Assembly (NCBI GenBank): GCA_041737125.1 | Contig: JBGSSJ010000012.1 | Location: 2,637 to 66,636, forward strand | Origin: Minisyncoccia bacterium | Lineage (GTDB): Bacteria; Patescibacteriota; Minisyncoccia; Phycocordibacterales; UBA9973 | DNA length: 64,000 bases | Direction of reading: 5' to 3' | Shown: in pieces, positions 44,682 to 61,854 of the stretch | Layout: each line of letters opens with the position of its first letter | Numbering within the stretch: the first letter of the stretch is position 1 | The notes under the pieces: generated by a model | The model's database searches: none | What the model was told of the DNA's origin: nothing | The model's input: only the letters and a program-made list of their open reading frames with translations | Position numbers and translations under genes: made by a program

Positions 44682-46178
44682 TTATATGGACTTAATTTGT
44701 TCTTTCTTGTGATCTTCGATAGCTTTATCTACTTCATCTAGATCACCTTCTATGGCTTCTTTAATTTCTTTTTCTTCTTTGGATAGAATGCGAGTATGGC
44801 GAGTATTTTGTAATATTTCCAGATGTTTCTCTAGGCGCTTTTTTAACAAAAGAAGTATTTTTGAATGGTCACCTCTAACAAGAGCACTGCGAACTATAAT
44901 TTTCTTGTGGAGCCTATCATATTGACGTCCGAGCTTAAATGCACCAATAATCAAAACTATTACTAGTACGATAATTAAATATATTACAGGCACATCAACT
45001 GCCAACATGTTGATAGTGTATGGATCCTTCGCAGGTGCAAGTGGTTGTAATGGTTGTACTTGCTCTACTGGTGCGATAGTTGCAGTGAAAATTCCAACTG
45101 ATTCCACACTGTTACCTGCGCGATCAAATGCTACTAATTTCACAGTATGGTTCCCCGCTATACTATAAGGAAGGCTGTAGTTGCCATCAACAAAATCTGC
45201 ATAATCCACCTTCTTTACCAATACATCATTTATGTAAATTTCATAATAATCTAATCCTGAAGTTTCATCTATGATATCAGCATTTATGTTGAGGACTTTC
45301 TTAGTATCATCATAGATAAAGGTAACATCATTCTTCTTCGGAATAGTAGTATCTATTCTTGCTATATATGTACTAGTCGGACCCCATTTCCCATCTTTCT
45401 GTGCGCGTACTTTGAAGTACCAAATTCCATCTTTCAAGTTTTTCACAGACCTTTCGCTTGTTGCAGGGCTTATTGTCACGCGAGGAACACCCGCAATATT
45501 ACTATCAATACCTGTTTGTACAGAAGTTATCCCTGTTGGTAATTTCCATTTGAATATTGGATTATTATCCTTATACCACAATTCCTGAGATGGATGAGTG
45601 AGTGATGTCACATTTAATGTGATGAGTGATGGTTGTGGTGCGGGTACGTCAGCAACAACCGGCTCCTCCTTTTGCACTATAGAGAGAGTCTTGCCTGTTT
45701 TACTATTTAAGACATCAGTACCAAACCCATCATCCGCACGAACAGCAGAGTCAGAGAAGATTAAGTCAGCCTGGCCAGCTTTCTTTGCTTTCACAACGAA
45801 AGAGAGTGCAGTGCCACTTGAGCCATTGAATCCCGGAGTAGGGATACCTCCATTGAAAGTAATAATTCCACTAACATTCGAATATGCAGGCTCCTCTACC
45901 CACAAGGAGAATACTGAGCCTCCTTTATTTATAGATACTACCTCAAGTAAATCACTTGGATATATAATTTTCGCTTCGGCATTATTGATCGGTACACCTT
46001 CTGAATTTATCACTACTGATAGTGTCGTTATACCTCCAGGCGAAAGACTGGTCGAAGAAGAATTAATTTTAAGTGTAGCCGCGTCTACAGTACTTGATAC
46101 AAAGAATGAAATAAGTAGCAGGCAAAAGAATGCTAATTTAGTTTTTAGTAGATTTTTTATATCCATAGAAGATCCCAC
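44682..46178 (-). CDS. Secreted, C-terminally membrane-anchored protein with an N-terminal cohesin-like domain, beta-sandwich repeats and a cytoplasmic coiled-coil tail
   Basis: 498 aa; signal peptide; N-terminal ~140 aa (TLKINSSS...GGITTLSVVINSEGVPINNAEAKIIYPSDLLEVV...SLWVEEPAY) is paralogous to the upstream 219-aa protein; TM VIYLIIVLVIVLIIGAF near the C-terminus; overlaps the upstream gene by 41 nt. Confidence 0.45.
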   Translation of the reverse strand: MGSSMDIKNLLKTKLAFFCLLLISFFVSSTVDAATLKINSSSTSLSPGGITTLSVVINSEGVPINNAEAKIIYPSDLLEVVSINKGGSVFSLWVEEPAYSNVSGIITFNGGIPTPGFNGSSGTALSFVVKAKKAGQADLIFSDSAVRADDGFGTDVLNSKTGKTLSIVQKEEPVVADVPAPQPSLITLNVTSLTHPSQELWYKDNNPIFKWKLPTGITSVQTGIDSNIAGVPRVTISPATSERSVKNLKDGIWYFKVRAQKDGKWGPTSTYIARIDTTIPKKNDVTFIYDDTKKVLNINADIIDETSGLDYYEIYINDVLVKKVDYADFVDGNYSLPYSIAGNHTVKLVAFDRAGNSVESVGIFTATIAPVEQVQPLQPLAPAKDPYTINMLAVDVPVIYLIIVLVIVLIIGAFKLGRQYDRLHKKIIVRSALVRGDHSKILLLLKKRLEKHLEILQNTRHTRILSKEEKEIKEAIEGDLDEVDKAIEDHKKEQIKSI

Positions 46179-46797
46179 CCAACAAAATAATTACTAATAA
46201 TATTATAACATTGTTATTCATACTAAATCCAGGGAAAATTGTCTTCTCTTCTGTCGGTTCTTCTATTTTACCATCAACTTCTTCTGTAGTAATTTGTGAA
46301 TCTTTTACCACAAGATTTAAAGACATCGATTTTACTATAGTTGATTCTTCTGTCCCCTTTCCATCATTTAAATATGTCTTCACTCCACTCCATGTCATGT
46401 CTATATTACCTGACACTGCAGTACGTAGGTGTAAGGTCAAAACGAGGCCTTCTTTTGCGAGTCCCTCAGGAGTACCACCTACAAAACGAACCGTCTTTCC
46501 CTTCGAATTATATACTGGTTCTACCGGCCACATAGAGAGAGCTGAGCCTTGTTTACTTACTTCTACTGACAAGGAGTCGGCAATAGAGCCTTGTAGAGAC
46601 ACAGTTCCTTCGATAACATTTAAATTCTTCCCTTGTGGATCTATACGTACCTCTACCACTGTTGTAGTATCCCCATCTTTGCTAGTAGGTACCACTTTAT
46701 AGCTTAGTTGGGCTGCCAGTAAATCCTGTGGTACTACGCACAACAAAAAGCTGATTATAAATGCGTATGCTATATGTGATGAGAATATTTTATACAT
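46138..46797 (-). CDS. Secreted, C-terminally membrane-anchored protein with a cohesin-like domain
   Basis: 219 aa; signal peptide; ~130-aa beta-rich domain (KVVPTS...VVEVRIDPQGKNLNVIEGTVSLQGSIADSLSVEV...SMWPVEPVY); Glu/Thr linker; C-terminal TM VIILLVIILLGGIFYGY; begins 7 nt after the giant gene stop. Confidence 0.45.
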   Translation of the reverse strand: MYKIFSSHIAYAFIISFLLCVVPQDLLAAQLSYKVVPTSKDGDTTTVVEVRIDPQGKNLNVIEGTVSLQGSIADSLSVEVSKQGSALSMWPVEPVYNSKGKTVRFVGGTPEGLAKEGLVLTLHLRTAVSGNIDMTWSGVKTYLNDGKGTEESTIVKSMSLNLVVKDSQITTEEVDGKIEEPTEEKTIFPGFSMNNNVIILLVIILLGGIFYGYKKSTKN

Positions 46798-46803
46798 AAT
46801 TAA

Positions 46804-49800
46804 TTATTGTTTTTTAAAGGCGATAGGTTTCTTGCCCCATTGATAAAGAAGGATAGAAAAGTCGACTGAATTTACTTGTTTGTCTAGATTTATATCAGCA
46901 CAAGGGTTATTAAATGGGGATGTTGTTTTCCAGAAAGAAAGCATTATAGAGAAGTCTACTGAATTTACTTTTCCATCATGGTTTAAGTCTGCACCAATAC
47001 ATGCATTCGTTAAAATAGGTGCTACAGATGCCCCACCTCCACCACCTCCCCCTCCACCAGGCGGTGTGACTGAAGTATCGGTACTCGCTGCAAATGACTG
47101 AGATGCAGTTGAGGAATCTGATCCGAACAATACATCCAAATGGAAGTAATAATCACCAGCAATAGGTACAGTCGAGTTCAATGTTGTATCAAAATTTTCT
47201 AATGGCTGAATTAATTTCGCCGCAGTAGAACTAAATATATCATTCCCTCCTCCGCATGTATTGAGTACTGAATCAGTAACACACCATGTGTATTGATATT
47301 CATATGCAGTAGATCCTTCATTCGTAATACGAACTGCAGTAGATATACTTGGAACAATCAAATCAGTAAAGCTCTGAATCAATACTTGCGCAGGAGATCC
47401 AGGAGTACCACTTACTTCACCTGAAGCGACACTCGTGCCAATAATATTTTTCGCATATACTCGGAAATCATACGAGTTATTATTCGCAAGTCCTGTAACT
47501 GTAACAGAAGGAGTAGTACTTACACTATCAGCAAATACAGTCCATGTACCCAATGTCGTAAGTTTATATTCTATAACATAATCAGTTATCGCAGAGCCTC
47601 CATTGGAAAGTGGTGCTGACCAAGACAAGCTTACACTACTATCATCAATGATTGCTGCTAAGTTAGTCGGCGCCCCTGGGACACTCGCAGGAGTTACTCC
47701 AGAACTTGATCCAGAAGACACACCCGTACCGAGAGCATTTGTAGCAGTGACACTAAATGTATAAGTGACTCCATTCGTAAGCCCTGTGAATATTGCAGTC
47801 GTTGTCGCGCTTGTCATTGTAGCGCCGCCTGGACTTGCCGTAATAGTATATGAAGTTATCGGTGAGCCGCCATTTGAAGCTGGAGCAGACCAAGACACAA
47901 TAACGCTCGTATCCGCTGCTTCACCAGCTACGTTCGTAGGAGCTCCTGGAACAGTTGCAGGAGTTACGGAATTACTTGCACTAGATGCAACACTTGTCCC
48001 AACTGCATTAGTTGCAGTGAAAGTGAATGTATATGTCACTCCATTTGTAAGTCCTGTCACAGTGATCGGTGAAGTACCTCCAGTTGCAGTATGTCCACCA
48101 ATGTTTGAAGTAATAGTATACGAAGTGACTGCTGATCCTCCATTGTTCACTGGAGGTGTGAATGTAATAGTTGCTTCGCCATTCCCAGCAACTGCAGTTA
48201 TGCTTGTAGGCGCATCAGGTACAGTCGCAGGCACAATTGAGTTACTTGTTCCTGAAGAAGTACTTGTTCCCATAATATTTGTTGCAGTCACAGTGAATGT
48301 ATAGGTTGTACCATTAGTAAGTCCTGTGACTGTGATTGGTGAACTACCTCCAGTAGCAGTATGACCTCCAACATTTGAAGTGACTGTGTATGAAGTTATC
48401 GCAGATCCACCGTTATTTACTGGAGGTGTGAATGTGATAGTAGCTTCACCATTACCTCGAACTGCAGTTATAGATGTCGGTGCATCCGGAACAGTCGCCG
48501 GAGTTACAGAATTAGTTGTCGCTGAAGCAATTCCTGTACCCACACTATTCGTCGCAGTCACAGTAAATGTATATGTCACTCCATTTGTAAGTCCTGTGAC
48601 TGTGATTGGTGAACTACCTCCAGTTGCAGTATGACCTAAGTTTGAAGTAACTGTATAGATTGTTATGGCAGAGCCGCCATTTGAAGATGGAGCAGTGAAT
48701 GTAATTGTTGCTTGTCCATTACCTGCTGTTGCAGTACCGATAGTAGGAGCTCCTGGTACACTGACCGGAGTTACTGAATTACTAGAACTTGATGCAACAC
48801 TAGTCCCCACATCATTTGTGGCAGTCACTGTGAATGTATATGTCACTCCATTCGTAAGTCCGACAACTACCAAAGGAGATGACCCTCCTGTTGCTGTATG
48901 ACCAAGGTTTGAAGTTACTGTGTAGCTTGTGATTGCTGATCCGCCATTATTTACTGGGGGTGTAAATGTGATAACTGCTTCGCCATTGCCCGCTGTTGCA
49001 GTCCCTATAATAGGAGCATCAGGAACTGTAGCTGGAGTAATAGTATTACTTGGATCTGAAGCGACACTAGTACCTACCGCATTTGTCGCAGTCACTGTAA
49101 ATGTATACGAGACACTATTTGTAAGCCCCGTGACTGTAATTGGAGAGCCGTTACTTGTTGCAGTAAATCCTCCAGGACTTGAAGTCACTGTATAACTTGT
49201 GATTGTAGATCCGCCATTATTCACAGGAGGTGTAAATGTAATTGTCGCTTCACCATTACCCCTGACTGCAATTATAGAAGTAGGTGCGTCAGGAACAGTC
49301 GCCGGAGTTACTGCATTACTTGCAGTTGATGCAACACTCGTGCCTACGGCATTGGTTGCAGTCACAGTAAATGTATATGCGACTCCGTTAGTAAGTCCTG
49401 TGACTACAAGTGGTGAACTACCACCTGTAGTAAAGTGTCCTCCAATACTTGAGGTCACTGTGTATGAAGTTATTGCAGATCCGCCATTTGATATAGGTGC
49501 GTCAAATGTGATAGTTGCTTGTCCATTACTAGAAACTGCAACTATATTTGTCGGTGCATCTGGAACAGTCGCCGGAGTTACAGCGTTGGTCGTGCCTGAA
49601 GCAACACTTGTACCATTTGCATTTGTGGCAGTCACAGTGAACGTGTACGTTGTACCGTTTGTAAGTCCAGTGATTGTTATCGGAGATGTCCCACCACTTG
49701 TAGTAAATCCTCCCGGACTTGAAGTGACTGTGTAGCTTGTAATTACAGAACCACCATTATTTACTGGAGGTGTGAATGTGATAGTTGCTTGACCGTTACC

Positions 49801-52800
49801 CGCTGTTGCAGTGCCTATGATAGGTGCGTCCGGAATCGTTGAAGGAACCACACTATTACTTGTAGCAGATGAGGCACCTGTTCCTGCACTATTCGTAGCA
49901 GTCACTGTAAATGTATACGTTACTCCGTTTGTAAGACCTGTGACTGTGATTGGTGAAGTACCTCCGGTTGCAGTGTGACCAAGATTTGAAGTAACTGTGT
50001 ATGAAGTTACCACAGACCCTCCATTATTTAATGGAGGTGTGAATGTAATAACTGCTTCGCCATTGCCTCCAGTTGCTGTACCTATTGTAGGTGCATCTGG
50101 AACTGTTGCAGGAGTTACAGCATTGGTTGTCGCAGAGGCAACGCTTGTACCATTTGCATTTGTTGCGGTCACAGTAAATGTGTATGAAGTACCGTTTGTA
50201 AGTCCGGTTACCGTGATTGGTGACGTACCTCCTGTAGCAGTGTGTCCAAGATTTGAAGTAACTGTGTAGCTTGTGATTGCAGAGCCACCATTATTTACTG
50301 GAGGTGTGAATGTAATAGTTGCTTGACCATTACCTGGTGTGGCAGTACCAATGATCGGGGCATCTGGAATAGTTTGATAACTAAAGTAAGGATACGATGA
50401 TGCTTCATCGATGGACCAAATAAGTGAAGTGAAATCCCATCCGACAAAAGTAGCTTCTTCTTTCATTTCTGTACTAGTCTTCCCCGTTATCCCAGCTGGA
50501 TCAACACCATTTCCGACACCGTCCCCAGTTGCATATCCTGATGTTGTTGTGTCCCAATAATTTGAAACATATGTCCCTCCAAGTGGATTCCCAGTTACTC
50601 CACCAGTGTACTGAAGTGAAGCTGCACCTGCTGCGCCCGTTCCACCTGTTGAACCTCCAGATCCGCCTACTCCAGCACTTCCGCCTGTACCACCTGTCGC
50701 ACCGTTTGTTTTCGTTCCAGATGGTGCTCCTGTTGCATATGTATTAGTAATAATTGTCGTATTATGACTTCCTAATAGTCCACCCACATACGCAGACCCT
50801 CCTGCACCACCGGCACCACCGGCACCACCATTTCCATTTACTCCAAGTGCTCCTCCTCCTTGAGCGCCTCCTGCGCCGCCCACTCCACCAACACCACCCA
50901 CTCCTGGAGTACCCCCAATTGCAGTAATAGACCCACGCTGGTAGGCATTTGTAATCGCTCCCGTATTTTGCCCGACTAATCCTCCGACAAACACAGCATC
51001 ACCCGCACCTCCTGCACCACCGGCTCCACCGATTGTTCCATTTCCACCATTTCCAGAAACACCTGATCCACCAGCACCTCCTTCACCGCCAGTACCTCCG
51101 ACTGCTCCCGCTGCACCCACACCACCTGTTACTAAAATATTTCCTGATGCATAACTTGTATTAAAATTCCCAGTAGTGATATTCGCTCCCACAAGTCCAC
51201 CCACATAACTTGCGCCAGAAGCACCACCAGCACCTCCTCCTATTGATGCTCCTCCTGCACCACCTGCAAGTGTTCCTCCATTTCCTCCTCTTCCTCCTGC
51301 GCCAGATGCCCCAGCACTTCCACCGTTTCCACCAACAGTAGTGACGTCGCCGGCTGACCAAGAAAATTGAATAATGCCGGCTGTAAAATTATATCCAACG
51401 AGTCCTCCGGCATACAAAGCTCCACCTGCGCCTCCTGCAGCCGTAGTACCACTTCCGCCACCTGCGCCTCCTGCGCCAGAGACACCACCGGTTCCCCCAT
51501 TTCCACTCAATCCTGCAGCCCCACCCACGCCACCAGTGGCTCCATTTACGCTAACATCTCCTAATGCATAGGTAGTATACAATGTTCCAATATTGTATCC
51601 TGCAAATCCTCCACCGTACGTGATACCTCCTGCAGCACCAACAGTTCTTGCACCTGAAGCTCCACCGGTACCACCAGTACCAGAGACATCTCCTGCTCCA
51701 CCTGTCCCACCATTTCCTCCCGCACCACCGACACCTCCTGTGCCCCCTACAAGAGTGAGCGATCCTGTAGAGTAAGAATCCTTAATCGTTCGTGCGGTAT
51801 TATTGAATCCAGTAAATCCTCCACCATAAGCAAGACCTGCGGCACCAGCTGCCCCACCGTTTCCAGCTACTCCACCGACACCTCCGTTGCCACTTACACC
51901 AACTGACCCAGAGGCACCATTGCCTCCAGTTCCACCAGCTCCTCCGGTGCCAGTAATACCGACAACATTACTTGTTGTATATGAAGAGAGAAAAATATTT
52001 CCATCGTTATACCCGACAAATCCACCAGCATACATAACACCTGATGCGCCACCTGCTCCACCTACCCAACCTATGCCACCAGCACTTGATGGGCTTGATA
52101 CTCCTCCATTTCCACCAATTCCACCATTGCCTCCATTCCCGCTTGTTGATGAGACCGTAGTACCAAGCGAATAACTAGTAAGAATTGTATTTGTCGTATT
52201 GACATTAAATCCTGCTAGTCCTCCAGAAGCTGAGACTCCACCTCCACCTGCGGGACCTCCGGCCCCACCAGTTCCTCCTATGTGTGAAGTTCCAAGCGAA
52301 CCATTTCCTCCAGTACCACCATTTGATCCATGTGCTCCATTACCCCCGATCGCAGTCACAGAACCAGTTGCATATGAATTTAAAATAATTCCTGTTGCCG
52401 CATTATTTCCGACAAGTCCACCAGCATACCCCAAACCACCTGCAGCACCACTCCCCCCTGCGCCTCCTGTCGCAGCTGTACCACCAGAGACTGTACTACT
52501 TGCCCCACCCGAAGCTCCATTACTTGATACTCCGGCATTCCCTCCGATAGAAGAGACAGCACCTGTTGCATAAGAACTTCCTTCTATAATTCCTGTATTA
52601 TTTCCGATCAATCCACCAGCATAGCTTGCGCCTCCTGTACCTGCGGTACCACCGGCTCCTCCTACTCCTCCGAGCGCACCAGATCCTGCAATTCCTCCAG
52701 CAACACTTGTAGCTGCATTACCACCTGTACCTCCTGTCGATGTAACATTACGCGTAGCATAACTTGTAGTAATAGTAACAGTACTTCCTAGCTGAGCAAT

Positions 52801-55800
52801 TAATCCTCCTGCGTAAGAAACTCCTCCTGCACCACCTGCACCAGCTGCGACACTCGCTCCTCCTGCACCACCAGCACCACCAGCACCAGGAATCCCAGAG
52901 GCTCTTCCATTTCCACCAAGTCCGCCAAACGACTCCACTGTATTGCCAGTCGAATATGCATGGAAATAATTACTTCCTCCTCCTGCCGCCATATTACTAT
53001 ACCCCACAAGTCCTCCAGCATTTGATTCACCTCCTATACCTCCTGACCCACCTGCACCAGAGGCACCACCTGCTGCACTTGTTGCGCCGTTTGCTCCATT
53101 TCCTCCGATATTTCCTGTACTTCCTGTGCCCCCAGTACTACTAACATTTCCTGTTGCATATGAATTAATAATGTCACTAAGTCCAGCACCTATTCTATTA
53201 TTTCCGATCAATCCACCAGCATAACTTGCACCTCCCACTGCACCAACCACAGCGCCACCACCTGTGCCACCTGCTACTGTTGATCGTGATGCGCCACCGT
53301 TCCCTGATATTCCTGAAATTCCAGCTGTTCCTCCAGTAGAGGAAACATTTCCTGTTGCATATGTATCTAAATAATTACTTGCACCGGTCGTGAAGTTACT
53401 GAAACCTACGAGCCCTCCAGCATTTGCTTCACCTCCGACACCAGCTAATCCTGCCAATGCACCAGGCGCACCTGCATGAGTACTTGTTCCTAGAGAACCA
53501 TCTCCACCATTGCCACCAAGACCTCCATTTCCCCCGAGCCCACCAACAACAGTGATGCTTCCTGTTGCATACGAATCACTAATTCGTACTATTTGTGTTG
53601 TTCCAGTCATACGACCAACAAGTCCTCCTCCGTATGCTAGCCCACCAGCTCCACCTGCGCCACCTGCTCCACCGAGTGCAGAGACTCCACTTGAAATAGT
53701 ACTACCAGAAGTACCTCCAGTCCCCCCATTACCACCAGTTCCGCCAGTACCAGCAGTTGCAGAAAAAGAAATTGACGAATAAGAATTATCTCGAATAATT
53801 CCGAGATTGTCTCCCACCAATCCTCCTACTGCTCGTACACCACCTGTACCACCAATACCTCCAAGAGCTCCAACTCCGCCATTAAATGCCCCTACACCAC
53901 TTCCTCCATTACCACCATTTCCGCCTGTTCCACCACTTTGTTCAAAACCTGAAATAGAAATCAGTGTTGAATATGAGTCTGATACTGCACCTGTTGATGT
54001 GCTTGATCCTAAAAGTCCTCCAATAAATGATCCTTGTGAAGCTCCACCTGCGCCGCCTGCACCACCTGCGCCACCTGCTCCACCTGTTGCCAATCCTGAA
54101 CCTCCATCCCCTCCATTACCTCCATTACCAGGAGTTCCGCCTGTCACCACAATATTACCTGCGCCGGATCCACTATCGACGGTTGCATGCGAAGAAATGA
54201 CATCAGACGTTGTGGATCCAACAAGACCCCCTGCATGAATTATACTTGATTGGTTTCCAGCACCACCAGCACTTCCTGCTGTTCCAGAGTTGATACTTGC
54301 ACTTATTCCATGTGCACCATTGCCTCCATTTCCTCCAGTAATATTGAGAGTTGTTTTTGAGTATGAGTTTGCTTGAATAATTCCAGTGCTATATCCTACT
54401 AATCCTCCAACATAGATACCTCCACCAAAACTTCCTACACCACCTGTTCCATTTAATCCATCAAGCGCTGTGCCCGTACCAATACCACCAATACCACCTA
54501 GAGCACCATGCCCCGCAGAACCACCCACCACTACGATAGTTCCTGTTTCTGCATATGATGAGGTAATTGTTCCTAAACTACTTTGCCCTACAAGTCCTCC
54601 TACGTGCAATGCCGTAGAGGCGGTTGTCGCACCTGAACCACCAGCACCACCATTTCCTGCAACACCTCCGATATGATTCGTACCAAGAGATCCATCACCG
54701 CCATTTCCGCCCTGTCCTCCGTTCCCGCCATTACCTCCTGTTCCTGTCATACTGACTGTCGCATAGGAACTATTAATAATTCCATTTGCTGTGTTGTTTC
54801 TTCCTACTAATCCTCCCAGTGAAAGACTTCCCCCTACGCCTCCTGCTCCACCGATACCACCAGCTGCAGCAGTTCCATTTGTTATAGCTCCAGAAGCACC
54901 AGCAGCGCCTCCTATTCCACCATTTCCTCCAGCTCCTGAAACCGCAACGAGAGATCCTGTTGTATGATAACTTGTTTCAATTCCAATAGAAGAATCCCCT
55001 ACTAATCCTCCTGTAAAGTTTGCACCACCTGCACCACCTATAGCTCCTGCACCACCTGCACCACCTATAGCAGCTCCTCCTCCAGATCCTCCTGAGCCTC
55101 CATTACCACCCGTTCCCCCTATACCAGATGTACCAGAAACAGTATTACTAGAGTATGCATTAATTATCTCACCTATATTTGAAAATCCGACAAGTCCTCC
55201 TGCATACGAGGCGCCTCCAACACCACCAACTCCTCCTATAGCTCCTGCTCCACCGACAGAATTATTTCCACCTACACCGCCTGATCCTGCATTTCCTCCT
55301 GCACCTGCATTTCCTGCACTTGCCATCACTGTACCTGTGGCATATGAATTATCAATATATGCATTTGTTGTAGTAAATCCGATAAGTCCTCCACTATACG
55401 CAGAGCCGCCAGTACCACCGGCTCCACCTACTGCTCCTGCTCCACCAAATATATTATTTATAGTTCCGTCACCACCATTTCCACCACTTGCACCATCCCC
55501 CCCCGTAGCTCCATTTACAGTAACTGAACCTGTTGCATATGAATTTCTTACTACGTATCCAGCACCGGCATTATATCCGACAAGTCCTCCACCATATATT
55601 GCATTACCAGATCCTCCGGCTCCTCCTGCTCCTCCAATAGAACCATTAGCACCTGATGTTCCGGTCGTTCCATTAGCTGCGACTCCACCATTTGCAACGA
55701 CATCATTTGTAGAATGTACAGTATCAATAAGAACATTACTAAGGGAGACATACCCTACAGCACCTCCTGCATGAACTGCACCTGTTACCCACCCAGCACC

Positions 55801-58800
55801 ACCTGCCCCACTTGTACCATTTCTTCCACTTCCTCCCCCACCAGTTCCTCCTGTAGCGCCTGTTCCACCAGATCCTCCAACACCAGCAAAAGTCACAGTA
55901 ATAGTTCCACCACTTGCTTGTGATGAAGAAATATTACCATTACCTTGGCCTGCTATCCCACCTATATATACTGCACCACCTACGTTTCCGGAGCCACCGT
56001 TTCCACCAACACCTCCAGCATGTCCACCAGTTCCAAGTGACCCATTTCCACCAGTACCACCATCTCCTCCCATACCTGCACTTGCTCCATTTCCAGTAAG
56101 ACTTCCTATAACACTCAGATTTGAAATAACTCCAGAAAAGTTAACACCAAAAAATGCAGTATTATCACCAGTAATACCTCCGATATATGTCGCACCTCCT
56201 ATTCCACCTGGACCACCGGTTCCACCACTTGCTGCAGTACCTCCGGCAATATTTCCAGATGCACCAGCCGTGCCACCTACCCCACCGTTTCCACCAACTC
56301 CTCCACTTACTGTAATAGTTGTAATTGTATATGTAAGATCTTTAATCACTCCAGCATTAGACCCCGTTATTCCTCCGCCGTACGCAGCTCCTCCAGTGCC
56401 TCCTGTAACACCCACAGCACCAGTTCCTCCTATTGCTCCACTTCCACCAGCACCACCAGGTGCTCCACCTCCGCCTATTCCACCTGCACCCCCAGTTGAA
56501 GTAATTGTCCCTATAGTATGTGGAGTAGAAAGTGTCGTACTCACCAATCCATTAAACCCAATAATACCTCCAGCATAACTAGCCCCACCGACACCACCGA
56601 AACCACCATTGCCCACATATGCAACACCTGCAAGACCTGCGACTCCCGGACCACTTGATCCTGGAGTACCGCTTGCTCCAGAATTTCCGCCGGCTCCTCC
56701 TATAGCTTCAATATTTCCAGAAGCATATGATCCAGAAGCAACAGTTGCAATATTGTATCCGACAACACCTCCACTTGAAGCAAGACCTCCAGCTCCACCA
56801 GAATTACCTAATGTTGCTGCACCTCCCGCAACAGCATTACTTGAATTACCACCATTTGCGCCTGATCCTCCTAAACCTCCAACTCCTCCGATGGCAGTTG
56901 CATTCCCTGTTGCATATGAACCACCAAGAACAATTCCATTTGTTGAATTATATCCCAGCAATCCACCTGCATATCCTGCACCCGCAGCGCCCCCGATTCC
57001 AAGACTTCCACCACCAGAAGCTCCGATAGTTCCACTTCCACCTGTTCCACCTGCGCTACCGATACCACCTGTTCCACCAGTTGAGATAGTGTTGCCCGTA
57101 GCATATGAATTATTGATAACACCGTTACTAAACCCAACAAGTCCTCCAGCAGAAGAATAACCTGCAGTAGCACTCGTCGCTCCATTTCCTCCTATTGCAC
57201 GGACTCCACCTGCACCACCTGCGCCGGCATTCCCAGAATTTCCACCAATAGAAAACACATCAACTTCTGAGTATGAATAAATAACACTTCCAGAAGAATT
57301 TTGTCCTACAATACCACCTGCAAAAGATAGCCCTCCTGCAGCGCCAGCTATTCCCGCTCCGCCAGCACCACCTATAGCATTTGTTCCACCCGCTCCGCCA
57401 CTGGACCCATCTGCACCATTACCACCAGAGCCTGCAGTGGAATAAACTGACCCTATCTCTGAATATGAATTAGATATTGTTGAAGTATTAAATCCTGCGA
57501 TTCCCCCTGAGTATGCAGTACCACCCACTCCACCTGCGCCACCAACAGAACCAGCAGCACCGACATGACTTGCACCACCTAGAGACCCGTTCCCTGCTGC
57601 GCCTCCAATTGCGCCACTTTTACCAGAAGATGCAGTCGCAGTAACTACACTTGTCGTATAATAATTTGTAATAAAATTCGCATTATGTCCTACAACACCA
57701 CCAGCATATGCAAGTGCACCTGCACCTCCTGCACCACCTGCACCACCTGATGCAGCGATTCCTGAATTAACTGTTGCAGTTGTTGCACCTCCTGCACCTC
57801 CTGCACCACCATCACCTGGAGTTCCACTCGTTGATGTTACTGCACCAGATGTAAGAATTAATGTTTCTGAAGTAATAACTCCAGTACTTTGACCCGCAAC
57901 TCCTCCTGCAAAAGAAGCTCCTCCAACTCCTCCTGCCGCGCCTGCGCCTCCTGCGCCGCCGATGGCATTCGTTCCGCCTGCAGCACCGGCACCGCCTGCA
58001 CCACCATTTCCTCCTGCACCACCAGTAACAATGACATCACCTGTTGAATAACTAGATGCTATCGGTCCCAAAATATATTGTCCTACCACTCCTCCTCCAT
58101 ATCCGGCACCGCCTATACCACCGACAGCTCCTGCACCACCTACTCCACCTGTCACACCTACAGCACCTACTCCTCCATTTCCTCCGTTTCCACCTATACC
58201 TCCAGCACCACCAGTTGCATTTACTGTTCCTGTTCCGTAAGAAAATAGTACTTGTCCGTTAAGATTGTAGCCAATAACACCACCAACATATGCAGCACCT
58301 CCAACTGCTCCAGCACTTCCTGCAATACCAGCAAGACTAGTGCCACCATTTCCACCAAGTGCTCCATTTCCACCTGAGCCACCTGTACCAGTTACTGTGC
58401 TCGTTGAATAATCATTTGTTAATGTGGACCCTGAGTTATATCCAATAACACCTCCCACATATGCAGCACCTCCCACAGTTGCAATAGCACCTGCTCCACT
58501 AAGAGCTCCAGCACCACCAGCTCCACCGGCACCGGCATTCCCACCAGCACCTGCAGTTCCAGTTATAGTCCCTGTTGTGTGATAACTATGACTTGTTACA
58601 TTTGTATTTACACCAACTACACCTCCAATATAAACATCACCTGCAGCACCCGCATTGGCACCTGCAATTCCAGGCAAACCAATAAGACCTGAAACTCCTG
58701 CACCACCACTCCCACCTCCGCCACCTAGTCCTATTACTTGGTTTTCAGAATATGAATATTGAATTATCCCTGTATTACGTCCTGCGAGACCACCAACCTG

Positions 58801-61800
58801 TGCGAAAGTTACAAATGCTGATCCTCCTACACCAGAGGCACCGCCTGCACCTGAAGCTCCGCTAGCCCCCTTTACTCCACCTGAGCCCCCTGTACCACCA
58901 GCACCACCTGAGCCAGCAACTCCGGTAATAACTCCTGTTGTTGCATATGAAGAAAGAATAACTCCAGCATTAAGTCCAGCAAGACCACCAACATACGCTC
59001 CACCTCCTGCACCTCCTGCACCAGCAGCACCTCCTGCACCTCCTGCATGTGCTGCACCAAGAGAAGCACTTCCTCCTGCGCCGCCTGATTGTCCATTTTT
59101 ACCATTTGATCCAGTTCCGGTCACATTGCTTGTTGAATAGTTTGAGCCTATATCTCCGATAATAATTCCAGCTGAAGCATTCTGTCCTACAAGTCCTCCA
59201 GCATGCGCAAGTGACCCTGCACCACCTGCGCCGCCTATTCCACCTATAGCAGCAGTTCCTGTTGTAGCAGTCGCACTTGCACCACCTATACCACCGGTTG
59301 AACTAGTTCCACTTTCTCCACCGAATGCTTCTACATCTCCTGTTGCATATGAAGCGCCTTCAATAATTCCTGAATTATTCCCCACTAAACCACCAACATA
59401 AGTGACTCCACCGAGAGCACCCGCTGCTCCTGCTCCACCTGCTCCACCAATCGCTGCGCCTCCGCCGGCACCCCCAACACCTGCTGTTCCCGCATTTCCC
59501 CCTGTTCCTCCAGTTCCAGTAACAGAACCTGTCGTATATGAAGCGTCAATTACTCCTGTATTAATCCAACCAGCAAGTCCGCCAACATAACTAATACCTC
59601 CCACGCCTGGAGCACCAGCTGCACCACCTGCTCCACCGATACCTGTTCCAGAGTTTGTTCCACCATTACCAGCTGCACCTGAGTCACCACCTGTACCACC
59701 TACACCGATAACTGTCGCCGAACTACTTGATGTTGTTATATTTCCTTGAGCAGAGAAACCGACAAGTCCACCTACATATGATATTGCTCCCGCACCACCT
59801 GCAAGAGTTCCACCTCCCGCACCTGCGACTGTTGCGCCACTTGTTGTATTTCCACCAGCACCACCCGAACCTGATGCACCACCTGCACCACCAGTCCCTG
59901 TAATAAAACCTGATACACTTGCACTGGTGATAGTTCCTGCATTATATCCAGCAAGCCCACCGACGTAGACGATAGACCCCGCTCCGCCAATTGTTCCTGT
60001 ACCTCCCGCTGTAGGTGTTACTCCAGATGTTCCTGTGGCACCATTTGAACCTGTCGCGCCAGATACTCCGACAGCCGTTATAGAAGCATTCGTAAGTACT
60101 ACATTTTCAATTAGGTTTGTTGTATATCCAAAAAGTCCGACATATGCGAGTGTTGTTGTATTAATAAAAAGATTGCTTATCGCATAATTGTCACCATTAA
60201 AATTCCCTGTAAATGGAGTTGTATTTGTTCCGATTGGAATAAATCCGACCCCTGCATTCCATCCTGAAGTCACACTTGCATTAATTGCATTATTTAATTT
60301 GTATGAACTAGCAAGATTAGTTCTCGCTCCTTGTAATCCGTACACATCAAAAACCATAAATGGATCAGTGCTGATTCCCATCCCTGTATATCGTCGAAAT
60401 GTTCCTGCACTTACTGAAAAATTTCCTGTTACAGAAAATGTATCGTTGAGTGGATCAGGTGCAGTAAAGGTAGCTGCGGAAGTTTGAATGTAATCACCAG
60501 ACAACCCACCAGAATTATTTATTATAAGATTTGCATTCTGAGTAATAGTTCCTGTATATCCAGATATAGTAAGAGAGCCTATAGTAAAAGCTTGATCTAT
60601 AATTGCACCATTTGAACCTGTATCAAAAATAACGTTCGTTTCAAAATCAGGTATAGAAGCTCCGCTTGCACCACCAGATGTGGCAGACCAACTAGATGTA
60701 CTACTCCAATTTGCACCAGCTGCTCCTACCCAATATCTTGTAGTGATAGGGTCAACAACTTGATCAATGGTAAGGTCTCCAATAATTTTCAAATCAAATG
60801 TTTCTAAAGGAGTAGAGAGCCCTGATAAAATTATCCTATATTTACCATCTTCAGCAATGACAGGGAAAGCAGCGATAAATTCTCCATCAACAGTATAGAC
60901 TTCAACTGTCACAGCACTACCATCATGAGTAGGCTTTGCATACAAAGTTATATCATTTCCATTATCGAGAAACGTATCAAACGTAACTCGTACAAATTGT
61001 CCGTCTAGAATATCTGCAAAAATTTGATCTCTATATTTTATTGCATCGAAAATATCTTCAAGAATATTTTTATCAGAATCCAGACGAATACCATCTGAAA
61101 TAAAAATAATTTCAAATGTCTGAGTAGAGAGGTGCGGTACTACCCAACTCACGTGATCTATATATTCATCTTCGTCATCGTCGTACGAGACGAATTCCAT
61201 ATTTTCATCTCCATTATTGGTCCATTTTATTTTTATTTGATCTTCTTGTCCTACTTTAAATATTTCTGAAATTTCTATACGGACCGGAACGTCAACCATA
61301 GGAGCTACAGCATCTTGCTCGGGAGTAGACGAAACTACTACTACTTTACCGTTATCTATTACTTGCTCCTCGATAGTTGGTAGGCGACTCGTTTCTTCGC
61401 CAAGTGATGGAGGTATTTCTTCGCTAATTGCTTCCAATGCACTTGAGCCTCCACTATTATCTATATCTTCATTCTTCTCTTCTTCGCTCTCTATAATAAT
61501 TTCTGTTACTACTTCTGGTTCTTCAATTATCTCAGTACTATCTTCATTTACTATTTCTATTACTTCCTCTTCAGCTACTTCAGGCTCGGAAATTGTTTCT
61601 ATAATATCTTCTGTTGTTACTTCTTGTTCTACAGTTACTTCTTCCGTATCTTCTATTATTTCTGTAACAGGTAGCACAGCTTCGATGGTGGGATCATTTG
61701 TAGTAACCTGAATCATTTCTACAGTTTCTTCATTGGTTGTGGATTCAATTATTACTTCATCTTGCGCATCAACAGTAAAATAAAAACTACACAATAAAAA

Positions 61801-61854
61801 AATTGCGAAGAGAAATGATAAAATTTTATTATATTTAAAAGCACAAAGCGACAT
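46804..61854 (-). CDS. Giant secreted surface protein (5,016 aa): signal peptide, acidic E/T/I-rich linker, ~450-aa N-terminal domain, ~3,200 aa of GLUG-like Gly-rich repeats, 11 FN3-like repeats, a small C-terminal domain, a Gly9 linker and a C-terminal dockerin
   Basis: One uninterrupted 15,051-nt ORF. N-terminus MSLCAFKYNKILSFLFAIFLLCSFYFTVDA. Recurring (Y)VGGLVG-N-G-I--SYATG units separated by G/A/S/T-rich spacers. FN3-like units PDAPTIGTATAGNGQATITFTPP...YTFTVTATN x11. Tail ...DLNHDGKVNSVDFSIML...DINLDKQVNSVDFSILL. Confidence 0.85.
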   Translation of the reverse strand: MSLCAFKYNKILSFLFAIFLLCSFYFTVDAQDEVIIESTTNEETVEMIQVTTNDPTIEAVLPVTEIIEDTEEVTVEQEVTTEDIIETISEPEVAEEEVIEIVNEDSTEIIEEPEVVTEIIIESEEEKNEDIDNSGGSSALEAISEEIPPSLGEETSRLPTIEEQVIDNGKVVVVSSTPEQDAVAPMVDVPVRIEISEIFKVGQEDQIKIKWTNNGDENMEFVSYDDDEDEYIDHVSWVVPHLSTQTFEIIFISDGIRLDSDKNILEDIFDAIKYRDQIFADILDGQFVRVTFDTFLDNGNDITLYAKPTHDGSAVTVEVYTVDGEFIAAFPVIAEDGKYRIILSGLSTPLETFDLKIIGDLTIDQVVDPITTRYWVGAAGANWSSTSSWSATSGGASGASIPDFETNVIFDTGSNGAIIDQAFTIGSLTISGYTGTITQNANLIINNSGGLSGDYIQTSAATFTAPDPLNDTFSVTGNFSVSAGTFRRYTGMGISTDPFMVFDVYGLQGARTNLASSYKLNNAINASVTSGWNAGVGFIPIGTNTTPFTGNFNGDNYAISNLFINTTTLAYVGLFGYTTNLIENVVLTNASITAVGVSGATGSNGATGTSGVTPTAGGTGTIGGAGSIVYVGGLAGYNAGTITSASVSGFITGTGGAGGASGSGGAGGNTTSGATVAGAGGGTLAGGAGAISYVGGLVGFSAQGNITTSSSSATVIGVGGTGGDSGAAGNGGTNSGTGIGGAGGAAGAPGVGGISYVGGLAGWINTGVIDASYTTGSVTGTGGTGGNAGTAGVGGAGGGAAIGGAGGAGAAGALGGVTYVGGLVGNNSGIIEGASYATGDVEAFGGESGTSSTGGIGGASATATTGTAAIGGIGGAGGAGSLAHAGGLVGQNASAGIIIGDIGSNYSTSNVTGTGSNGKNGQSGGAGGSASLGAAHAGGAGGAAGAGGAGGGAYVGGLAGLNAGVILSSYATTGVITGVAGSGGAGGTGGSGGVKGASGASGAGGASGVGGSAFVTFAQVGGLAGRNTGIIQYSYSENQVIGLGGGGGSGGAGVSGLIGLPGIAGANAGAAGDVYIGGVVGVNTNVTSHSYHTTGTITGTAGAGGNAGAGGAGGAGALSGAGAIATVGGAAYVGGVIGYNSGSTLTNDYSTSTVTGTGGSGGNGALGGNGGTSLAGIAGSAGAVGGAAYVGGVIGYNLNGQVLFSYGTGTVNATGGAGGIGGNGGNGGVGAVGVTGGVGGAGAVGGIGGAGYGGGVVGQYILGPIASSYSTGDVIVTGGAGGNGGAGGAGAAGGTNAIGGAGGAGAAGGVGGASFAGGVAGQSTGVITSETLILTSGAVTSTSGTPGDGGAGGAGGATTATVNSGIAASGGAGGAGGAGALAYAGGVVGHNANFITNYYTTSVVTATASSGKSGAIGGAAGNGSLGGASHVGAAGSVGGAGGVGGTAYSGGIAGFNTSTISNSYSEIGSVYSTAGSGGNGADGSSGGAGGTNAIGGAGGAGIAGAAGGLSFAGGIVGQNSSGSVIYSYSEVDVFSIGGNSGNAGAGGAGGVRAIGGNGATSATAGYSSAGGLVGFSNGVINNSYATGNTISTGGTGGIGSAGGTGGSGTIGASGGGSLGIGGAAGAGYAGGLLGYNSTNGIVLGGSYATGNATAIGGVGGLGGSGANGGNSSNAVAGGAATLGNSGGAGGLASSGGVVGYNIATVASGSYASGNIEAIGGAGGNSGASGTPGSSGPGVAGLAGVAYVGNGGFGGVGGASYAGGIIGFNGLVSTTLSTPHTIGTITSTGGAGGIGGGGAPGGAGGSGAIGGTGAVGVTGGTGGAAYGGGITGSNAGVIKDLTYTITTITVSGGVGGNGGVGGTAGASGNIAGGTAASGGTGGPGGIGGATYIGGITGDNTAFFGVNFSGVISNLSVIGSLTGNGASAGMGGDGGTGGNGSLGTGGHAGGVGGNGGSGNVGGAVYIGGIAGQGNGNISSSQASGGTITVTFAGVGGSGGTGATGGTGGGGSGRNGTSGAGGAGWVTGAVHAGGAVGYVSLSNVLIDTVHSTNDVVANGGVAANGTTGTSGANGSIGGAGGAGGSGNAIYGGGLVGYNAGAGYVVRNSYATGSVTVNGATGGDGASGGNGGDGTINNIFGGAGAVGGAGGTGGSAYSGGLIGFTTTNAYIDNSYATGTVMASAGNAGAGGNAGSGGVGGNNSVGGAGAIGGVGGVGGASYAGGLVGFSNIGEIINAYSSNTVSGTSGIGGTGGNGGSGGSGGGAAIGGAGGAGAIGGAGGANFTGGLVGDSSIGIETSYHTTGSLVAVSGAGGNGGIGGAAGASGAITNGTAAAGGIGGAGGVGGSLSLGGLVGRNNTANGIINSSYATVSMTGTGGNGGNGGQGGNGGDGSLGTNHIGGVAGNGGAGGSGATTASTALHVGGLVGQSSLGTITSSYAETGTIVVVGGSAGHGALGGIGGIGTGTALDGLNGTGGVGSFGGGIYVGGLVGYSTGIIQANSYSKTTLNITGGNGGNGAHGISASINSGTAGSAGGAGNQSSIIHAGGLVGSTTSDVISSHATVDSGSGAGNIVVTGGTPGNGGNGGDGGSGLATGGAGGAGGAGGAGGASQGSFIGGLLGSSTSTGAVSDSYSTLISISGFEQSGGTGGNGGNGGSGVGAFNGGVGALGGIGGTGGVRAVGGLVGDNLGIIRDNSYSSISFSATAGTGGTGGNGGTGGTSGSTISSGVSALGGAGGAGGAGGLAYGGGLVGRMTGTTQIVRISDSYATGSITVVGGLGGNGGLGGNGGDGSLGTSTHAGAPGALAGLAGVGGEANAGGLVGFSNFTTGASNYLDTYATGNVSSTGGTAGISGISGNGGASRSTVAGGTGGGAVVGAVGGASYAGGLIGNNRIGAGLSDIINSYATGNVSSTGGTGSTGNIGGNGANGATSAAGGASGAGGSGGIGGESNAGGLVGYSNMAAGGGSNYFHAYSTGNTVESFGGLGGNGRASGIPGAGGAGGAGGASVAAGAGGAGGVSYAGGLIAQLGSTVTITTSYATRNVTSTGGTGGNAATSVAGGIAGSGALGGVGGAGGTAGTGGASYAGGLIGNNTGIIEGSSYATGAVSSIGGNAGVSSNGASGGASSTVSGGTAATGGAGGSGAAGGLGYAGGLVGNNAATGIILNSYATGSVTAIGGNGAHGSNGGTGGNGSLGTSHIGGTGGAGGPAGGGGVSASGGLAGFNVNTTNTILTSYSLGTTVSSTSGNGGNGGIGGNGGVSSPSSAGGIGWVGGAGGASGVMYAGGFVGYNDGNIFLSSYTTSNVVGITGTGGAGGTGGNGASGSVGVSGNGGVGGVAGNGGAAGAAGLAYGGGFTGFNNTARTIKDSYSTGSLTLVGGTGGVGGAGGNGGTGGAGDVSGTGGTGGASGARTVGAAGGITYGGGFAGYNIGTLYTTYALGDVSVNGATGGVGGAAGLSGNGGTGGVSGAGGAGGGSGTTAAGGAGGALYAGGLVGYNFTAGIIQFSWSAGDVTTVGGNGGSAGASGAGGRGGNGGTLAGGAGGASIGGGAGGASGASYVGGLVGANITTGNFNTSYASGNILVTGGVGAAGAVGGTGGEGGAGGSGVSGNGGNGTIGGAGGAGGAGDAVFVGGLVGQNTGAITNAYQRGSITAIGGTPGVGGVGGVGGAGGAQGGGALGVNGNGGAGGAGGAGGSAYVGGLLGSHNTTIITNTYATGAPSGTKTNGATGGTGGSAGVGGSGGSTGGTGAAGAASLQYTGGVTGNPLGGTYVSNYWDTTTSGYATGDGVGNGVDPAGITGKTSTEMKEEATFVGWDFTSLIWSIDEASSYPYFSYQTIPDAPIIGTATPGNGQATITFTPPVNNGGSAITSYTVTSNLGHTATGGTSPITVTGLTNGTSYTFTVTATNANGTSVASATTNAVTPATVPDAPTIGTATGGNGEAVITFTPPLNNGGSVVTSYTVTSNLGHTATGGTSPITVTGLTNGVTYTFTVTATNSAGTGASSATSNSVVPSTIPDAPIIGTATAGNGQATITFTPPVNNGGSVITSYTVTSSPGGFTTSGGTSPITITGLTNGTTYTFTVTATNANGTSVASGTTNAVTPATVPDAPTNIVAVSSNGQATITFDAPISNGGSAITSYTVTSSIGGHFTTGGSSPLVVTGLTNGVAYTFTVTATNAVGTSVASTASNAVTPATVPDAPTSIIAVRGNGEATITFTPPVNNGGSTITSYTVTSSPGGFTATSNGSPITVTGLTNSVSYTFTVTATNAVGTSVASDPSNTITPATVPDAPIIGTATAGNGEAVITFTPPVNNGGSAITSYTVTSNLGHTATGGSSPLVVVGLTNGVTYTFTVTATNDVGTSVASSSSNSVTPVSVPGAPTIGTATAGNGQATITFTAPSSNGGSAITIYTVTSNLGHTATGGSSPITVTGLTNGVTYTFTVTATNSVGTGIASATTNSVTPATVPDAPTSITAVRGNGEATITFTPPVNNGGSAITSYTVTSNVGGHTATGGSSPITVTGLTNGTTYTFTVTATNIMGTSTSSGTSNSIVPATVPDAPTSITAVAGNGEATITFTPPVNNGGSAVTSYTITSNIGGHTATGGTSPITVTGLTNGVTYTFTFTATNAVGTSVASSASNSVTPATVPGAPTNVAGEAADTSVIVSWSAPASNGGSPITSYTITASPGGATMTSATTTAIFTGLTNGVTYTFSVTATNALGTGVSSGSSSGVTPASVPGAPTNLAAIIDDSSVSLSWSAPLSNGGSAITDYVIEYKLTTLGTWTVFADSVSTTPSVTVTGLANNNSYDFRVYAKNIIGTSVASGEVSGTPGSPAQVLIQSFTDLIVPSISTAVRITNEGSTAYEYQYTWCVTDSVLNTCGGGNDIFSSTAAKLIQPLENFDTTLNSTVPIAGDYYFHLDVLFGSDSSTASQSFAASTDTSVTPPGGGGGGGGGASVAPILTNACIGADLNHDGKVNSVDFSIMLSFWKTTSPFNNPCADINLDKQVNSVDFSILLYQWGKKPIAFKKQ
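46807..47031 (-). other. C-terminal dockerin module (duplicated Ca2+-binding segment) of the giant protein
   Basis: Two F-hand-like repeats, D-L-N-H-D-G-K-V-N-S-V-D-F-S-I-M-L and D-I-N-L-D-K-Q-V-N-S-V-D-F-S-I-L-L, ~30 aa apart, preceded by a GGGGGGGGG linker. Confidence 0.75.
47395..50350 (-). repeat. Eleven tandem ~267-bp coding repeats (FN3-like domains), several near-identical at nucleotide level
   Basis: Visible as periodic, near-identical spurious plus-strand ORFs (e.g. ...DPPLFTGGVNVIVASPLP...VAVTVNVY...) and as the protein repeat PDAPxIGTATAGNG(E/Q)ATITFTPPVNNGGSAITSYTVTSN...GLTNGVTYTFTVTATN. Confidence 0.85.
50450..60130 (-). repeat. ~9.7 kb of degenerate tandem coding repeats (period ~60-70 codons) encoding GLUG-like motifs plus GGxGGxGG spacers
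   Basis: Minus strand is dominated by GGN/GCN/ACN/AGY codons, so the plus strand reads as Pro-rich spurious ORFs. Motif VGGLVG...SYATG recurs dozens of times. Confidence 0.8.

Follow-up and report, generated by a model that had tools for sequence, protein, structure and literature searches.

Three adjacent genes in the window, i.e., the whole 64-kb stretch of DNA that was analysed, fairly likely form a non-cellulosomal cohesin-dockerin tethering module that is conserved in Parcubacteria/Paceibacterota-type Patescibacteria, with the binding itself predicted. The triad probably tethers large surface proteins, perhaps host-contact proteins, to the cell. This reading builds on the domain identities, folds, paralogy and linkage observed for a giant gene encoding a secreted fibre with a dockerin end (5016 aa; 46804..61854), a small membrane cohesin gene (219 aa; 46138..46797) and a large membrane cohesin gene (498 aa from a GTG; 44682..46178). 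All three lie on the minus strand, as do the features located below, and were taken from the ORF list, the giant also from its translation and Pfam matches. An earlier note on this DNA had reported these ORFs, and their positions, strand and lengths are confirmed. It had also placed the start of the 219-aa gene within 7 nt of the giant's stop; 6 nt separate the giant's TAA from that ATG, and the 498-aa ORF overlaps the 3' end of the 219-aa gene as described. The true start of the 498-aa ORF is likely the ATG at 46166, which would give a protein of 494 aa, because M5 is nearly invariant across the family, GGTGGGA is found 6 nt upstream, and the database member P0001 is 494 aa long. Promoter and terminator scans gave signals no higher than the shuffled expectation. 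The sole noteworthy site in the promoter scan was TTGGCA-16-TATTAT at 61993-61966, about 110 nt 5' of the giant's ATG.

The dockerin occupies the extreme C-terminus of the giant (aa 4950-5016; 46807..47007), where the earlier note had proposed it from the residue pattern. A dockerin is defined here by two segments of ~22 residues, each with a 12-residue Ca2+ loop (D1, N/D3, D/N5, N/D9, D12) and a helix. The giant carries two such segments in tandem, DLNHDGKVNSVD-FSIMLSFW and DINLDKQVNSVD-FSILLYQW, which are 31 residues apart and each pair an EF-hand-like loop with an F-S-I-(M/L)-L helix behind it; in both repeats, positions 1, 3, 5, 9 and 12 of the loop hold the canonical Ca2+ residues. Pfam Dockerin_1 (PF00404) matches above its gathering score (30.9 and 34.6 bits, cut-off 22.9), and phmmer matches the module to solved type I dockerins, namely CelS (1daq/2mte, E 5e-4) and 2vn5_B. 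In the six-frame translation of the window, DLNHDGKVNSVD and DINLDKQVNSVD are the only loop motifs of this kind. Over 72 loci, each Ca2+ ligand position is kept in 65-72, with hardly any variation in the F-S-I-L-L helices, and in 69 of them the distance from module to stop is 0-7 residues. Dockerin ORFs from five distant loci all pass Dockerin_1 (27.7-37.5 bits), and their passengers differ, being fn3 or MG2 with DUF7032. In other loci, a carrier of ~325 aa is frequent, and there are passengers of further kinds.

Both small proteins have N-terminal hydrophobic helices and C-terminal TM helices in their translations and AF2 models, in agreement with the signal peptides and membrane anchors assigned to them in the earlier note. 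In the 219-aa protein, the signal peptide is followed by a cohesin-fold domain (aa 29-162; nt 46312-46713), a disordered linker (aa 166-194) and the TM helix (aa 195-218; nt 46144-46215). The 498-aa protein consists of a signal peptide, a cohesin-fold domain (aa 34-167; nt 45678-46079), two Ig-like domains (aa 190-366; nt 45081-45611), a TM helix (aa ~398-422; nt 44913-44987) and a conserved helical cytoplasmic tail (nt 44685-44912). Neither has a match to SLH or LPXTG, and both end in a TM helix with a basic or helical tail. The two N-terminal domains had been called paralogous, which is borne out by BLASTP (25% identity, E 3e-9) and hhalign (98.7%, E 2.4e-16, 158 columns).

That these domains are cohesins, as had been suggested, holds for the fold but not at the level of the Pfam family. 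The AF2 models (pLDDT 86 for the 498-aa protein and 77 for the 219-aa protein) retrieve cohesins first and almost exclusively in Foldseek, with 2w1n (cohesin+FN3) as the top match of the former and 2xdh of the latter, and they display the nine-stranded flattened beta-sandwich (jelly-roll) of the cohesin fold. However, the 498-aa protein scores 13.6 bits against Pfam Cohesin (PF00963), below the threshold of 24.1 (E 0.08, over profile positions 2-122 of 139), and the same profile finds nothing in the 219-aa protein or in its family (0/20). In the large cohesin family, 12 of 56 members match Pfam Cohesin at E<=0.01, the best with an E of 3.5e-6, and the profile of this family gave only noise and no cohesin against PDB sequences. 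The 498-aa protein has 313 homologues, some of which carry Pfam Cohesin, DUF7743 or Big_13. Compared region by region, conservation within the 498-aa family is highest in the cohesin domain, and its invariant residues lie in or beside predicted strands 3, 5, 6 and 8, as numbered by order in the model and not by superposition. This position hints at the 8-3-6-5 face, through which cohesins bind dockerins.

The helical cytoplasmic tail of ~75 aa is also kept in the 498-aa family with conserved motifs (majority fraction 0.57), and we know of no classical anchoring scaffoldins with such a tail. Together with the two distinct cohesin paralogues that are kept, or fused, across the clade, this would fit an assembly, retention-and-release or signalling device rather than passive anchors, either by transient capture of the dockerin during export or by coupling of fibre engagement to the cytoplasm via the tail of the larger protein. 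Such a device is distinctly unlikely, given that searches of Pfam and NCBIfam found no known signalling or chaperone domain, that neither the small paralogue nor loci whose sole cohesin is of the small type have the tail, and that a stable tether is the simpler explanation for a C-terminal dockerin.

The remainder of the giant has the layout of a secreted fibre. A signal peptide (aa 1-30, ...FYFTVDA/QDE; 61765..61854), assigned by eye from the sequence and not by a predictor, precedes a low-complexity acidic segment rich in E, I, V and D by composition (aa 31-149; 61408..61764). The N-terminal "tip" beta domain that follows (aa ~150-375; 60730..61407) recurs ~300 aa from the N-terminus in 56 large representative proteins (at least 1000 aa) and in a 1112-aa protein of L084 (domain E 1.8e-56). 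It has no Pfam match, and aa 151-620 have no match among PDB sequences. A C-terminal TM helix with a basic tail is found in 16-17 of the 56 tip-domain homologues and other C-terminal tails in the rest, but never a dockerin; the dockerin of the giant therefore sits where a membrane anchor would. The start of the stalk (aa 376-620; 59995..60729) is a module of which other giant proteins have up to 11 copies. It leads into ~47 GLUG and Gly-triplet repeats of ~66 aa each (aa 621-3760; 50575..59994), recognised by period, composition (36% Gly) and a Pfam match, and the DNA of this region has a GC content of 0.50 and a GC skew of -0.4. The GLUG-like character noticed earlier is upheld by Pfam GLUG (PF07581) in a 226-aa slice, with 29 bits in three stretches against a cut-off of 20.5. 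A 2,899-aa piece covering most of the Gly-rich region matched no Pfam family, GLUG appearing only from the short slice, for which the composition filters of HMMER are one possible cause.

The count of 11 FN3-like repeats is likewise correct, as Pfam fn3 matches aa 3829-4817 (47404..50370) in 11 stretches (E 5.5e-99), with unit starts from aa 3829 to 4725 and a period of ~90 aa. Between these and the dockerin lie a conserved unannotated beta domain (aa 4818-4930, YTWCVTDS...CGGGND; 47065..47403), found by homologue comparison, and a poly-Gly linker seen in the sequence and kept in relatives (aa 4931-4949; 47008..47064). The beta domain has no Pfam match at E<=10 and is a constant companion of the dockerin, the ~325-aa carriers included. 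FN3 domains are common in glycoside hydrolases, and with both cohesin and dockerin domains present, a cellulosome-like display of enzymes for polysaccharide degradation might be considered. However, neither the giant nor its neighbours have a catalytic or CBM domain, the 64 kb hold a single dockerin, and each anchor has one cohesin and is held by a TM helix rather than by SLH or sortase. Pfam and NCBIfam found no catalytic domain in the giant, and NCBIfam gave nothing informative, its partial CbhB match being due to FN3. With no enzyme or CBM at the locus, the cellulosome reading is extremely improbable and was dropped.

The tethering module is also seen in the gene order of relatives. Among 80 species-level loci, seeded with the big cohesin so that linkage is measured from that side only, 67 have a dockerin ORF, a small cohesin and a big cohesin in this order on one strand, abutting or overlapping, and 3 further loci encode a fused double-cohesin protein. 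Contig ends cut 5 of the 80, which leaves 75 informative loci, and 70 of these show the tight order. When loci are seeded from the dockerin instead, the number of cohesin genes is one, two or three. The flanking genes vary between loci, and only the dockerin/cohesin module itself is therefore conserved. The placement in Patescibacteria is drawn from the homologues. Homologues of the giant with more than 3000 aa lie 5' of the cohesin genes in L001, L007, L008, L010, L011, L014, L020, L021, L028, L035 and L041. An assembly artefact as the source of the giant ORF was discarded, since many independent assemblies contain giant homologues that are intact. The combination of GLUG, FN3 and dockerin at giant size with dedicated anchors, which the earlier note had highlighted, exists in the window, but giant size and the GLUG+FN3 make-up do not define the module in relatives.

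Four loci (L005, L006, L054 and L075) have the big cohesin alone despite ample upstream sequence. These orphans, together with the sub-threshold Cohesin HMM on the 498-aa protein, could mean that the dockerin and the neighbouring cohesins are not binding partners, that the dockerin is a Ca2+- or ligand-binding end module, e.g., for a host surface or wall polymer, that the cohesin-fold proteins bind other things, and that adjacency reflects co-regulated envelope genes. Many non-cellulosomal cohesins and dockerins are reportedly without a known partner. Still, we regard separate functions as very unlikely, because the tight overlapping order is kept in 70 of the 75 loci whichever passenger is present, conservation is extreme in the dockerin helices as well as in the cohesin domain, and even the ~325-aa carriers, which have little besides the dockerin module, precede a cohesin gene. 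The anchoring interpretation is thus supported, with binding putative, and the outcomes that the earlier note had named as counting against it, among them a C-terminal module failing dockerin HMMs and genes that are not co-conserved, turned in its favour where run.

Under the tethering reading, the 5,016-aa protein would be exported by Sec, and its extreme C-terminal dockerin would dock non-covalently on the N-terminal cohesin of one or both of the next gene products. These would be bitopic membrane proteins with the cohesin outside and a single C-terminal TM helix, the larger one adding two Ig-like spacer domains and the conserved cytoplasmic helical tail. We infer the dockerin-cohesin binding, its Ca2+ dependence, its stoichiometry and the adhesive role. 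The FN3 domains, the GLUG/Gly-rich shaft and the tip domain would project from the cell; held by its C-terminus, the fibre would therefore point its shaft and tip outward. Most plausibly it would be an adhesin or host-contact structure. An unlikely extension is that the two membrane cohesins, fused in some species, form a heteromer that clamps a single dockerin with internal symmetry, and that the larger cohesin reports the load or engagement of the fibre inward through its conserved coiled-coil in the cytoplasm, as a general device mounting host-contact fibres of Paceibacteria. If true, episymbiotic bacteria would have here an attachment organelle that is mechanostable and signalling-competent.

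To our knowledge, how Patescibacteria (CPR) retain very large surface proteins or contact hosts is largely obscure outside the type IV pili of Saccharibacteria. The module described here is compact and recognisable in sequence, and it recurs in at least 70 species-level genomes as a dockerin-ended carrier with one to three membrane cohesins. Its dockerin (~70 aa) and cohesin domains (~135 aa) are of a size that can be expressed and assayed, so that attachment can be tested directly. If the tethering reading is true, non-cellulosomal cohesin-dockerin pairs would gain a concrete physiological role in the membrane tethering of adhesin-like fibres, and a divergent, highly conserved pair would join the toolbox of orthogonal protein connectors. 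The open-access literature on CPR, Patescibacteria, Parcubacteria and epibionts yielded no description of a dockerin with membrane cohesins as a module.

Compared with known systems, the triad resembles cellulosome anchoring (OlpA/OlpC/SdbA of C. thermocellum, ScaE of R. flavefaciens) in having a C-terminal dockerin with duplicated Ca2+ loops on a secreted protein and cell-bound proteins bearing the nine-strand cohesin. The best structural matches include the OlpA/OlpC cohesins (3ul4, 4dh2) and cohesins of C. cellulolyticum and C. acetobutylicum. Unlike the cellulosome, the triad has neither enzymes nor CBMs and one cohesin per anchor; a C-terminal TM helix takes the place of SLH or sortase in holding the anchors, the larger of which also has a cytoplasmic tail. 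The triad carries as cargo a fibre that can reach 5,000 aa, resides in a reduced-genome Patescibacterium, and has a cohesin subfamily whose sequence divergence keeps it from reaching the Pfam threshold. The GH84C/GH33 toxin complexes of C. perfringens (2w1n, 2vo8, 2o4e) and the A. fulgidus cohesin 2xdh are similar examples of cohesin-dockerin outside cellulose degradation. However, those pairs join soluble enzymes, while the triad cohesins are membrane-anchored and lie in a dedicated operon with a presumed single client in at least 70 species.

RTX adhesins such as SiiE, LapA and MpIBP depend on Ca2+ and combine a long repetitive extender with ligand binding at the distal end and a special device for holding one terminus at the cell. 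The giant is like them in its very long repeat region and presumed retention at one terminus, and SiiE is among the Foldseek matches to the Ig-like part of the 498-aa model. The triad differs in having no T1SS, RTX repeats, outer membrane or homology to these adhesins, and retention of the giant would be by the C-terminal cohesin-dockerin pair. Giant "dockerin-type" proteins of ultra-small Omnitrophota are also predicted to be at the surface, with a proposed role in attachment (bioRxiv 10.1101/2023.11.21.568195). They share with our giant the dockerin-like repeats in a giant predicted surface protein of an ultra-small bacterium, but differ in their numerous dockerin and thrombospondin repeats within the chain and in having C-terminal TM and SecA-like regions of their own. 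They belong to a different phylum, and paired membrane cohesin genes are undescribed there (10.1101/2023.11.21.568195). Finally, TMEM132 and the choanoflagellate coherins (PMC6030884) share the layout of the 498-aa protein, with a cohesin first, then Ig-like domains, a single TM helix and a cytoplasmic tail. These proteins are eukaryotic and without a known dockerin partner, and the likeness to the 498-aa protein drawn here is one of architecture.

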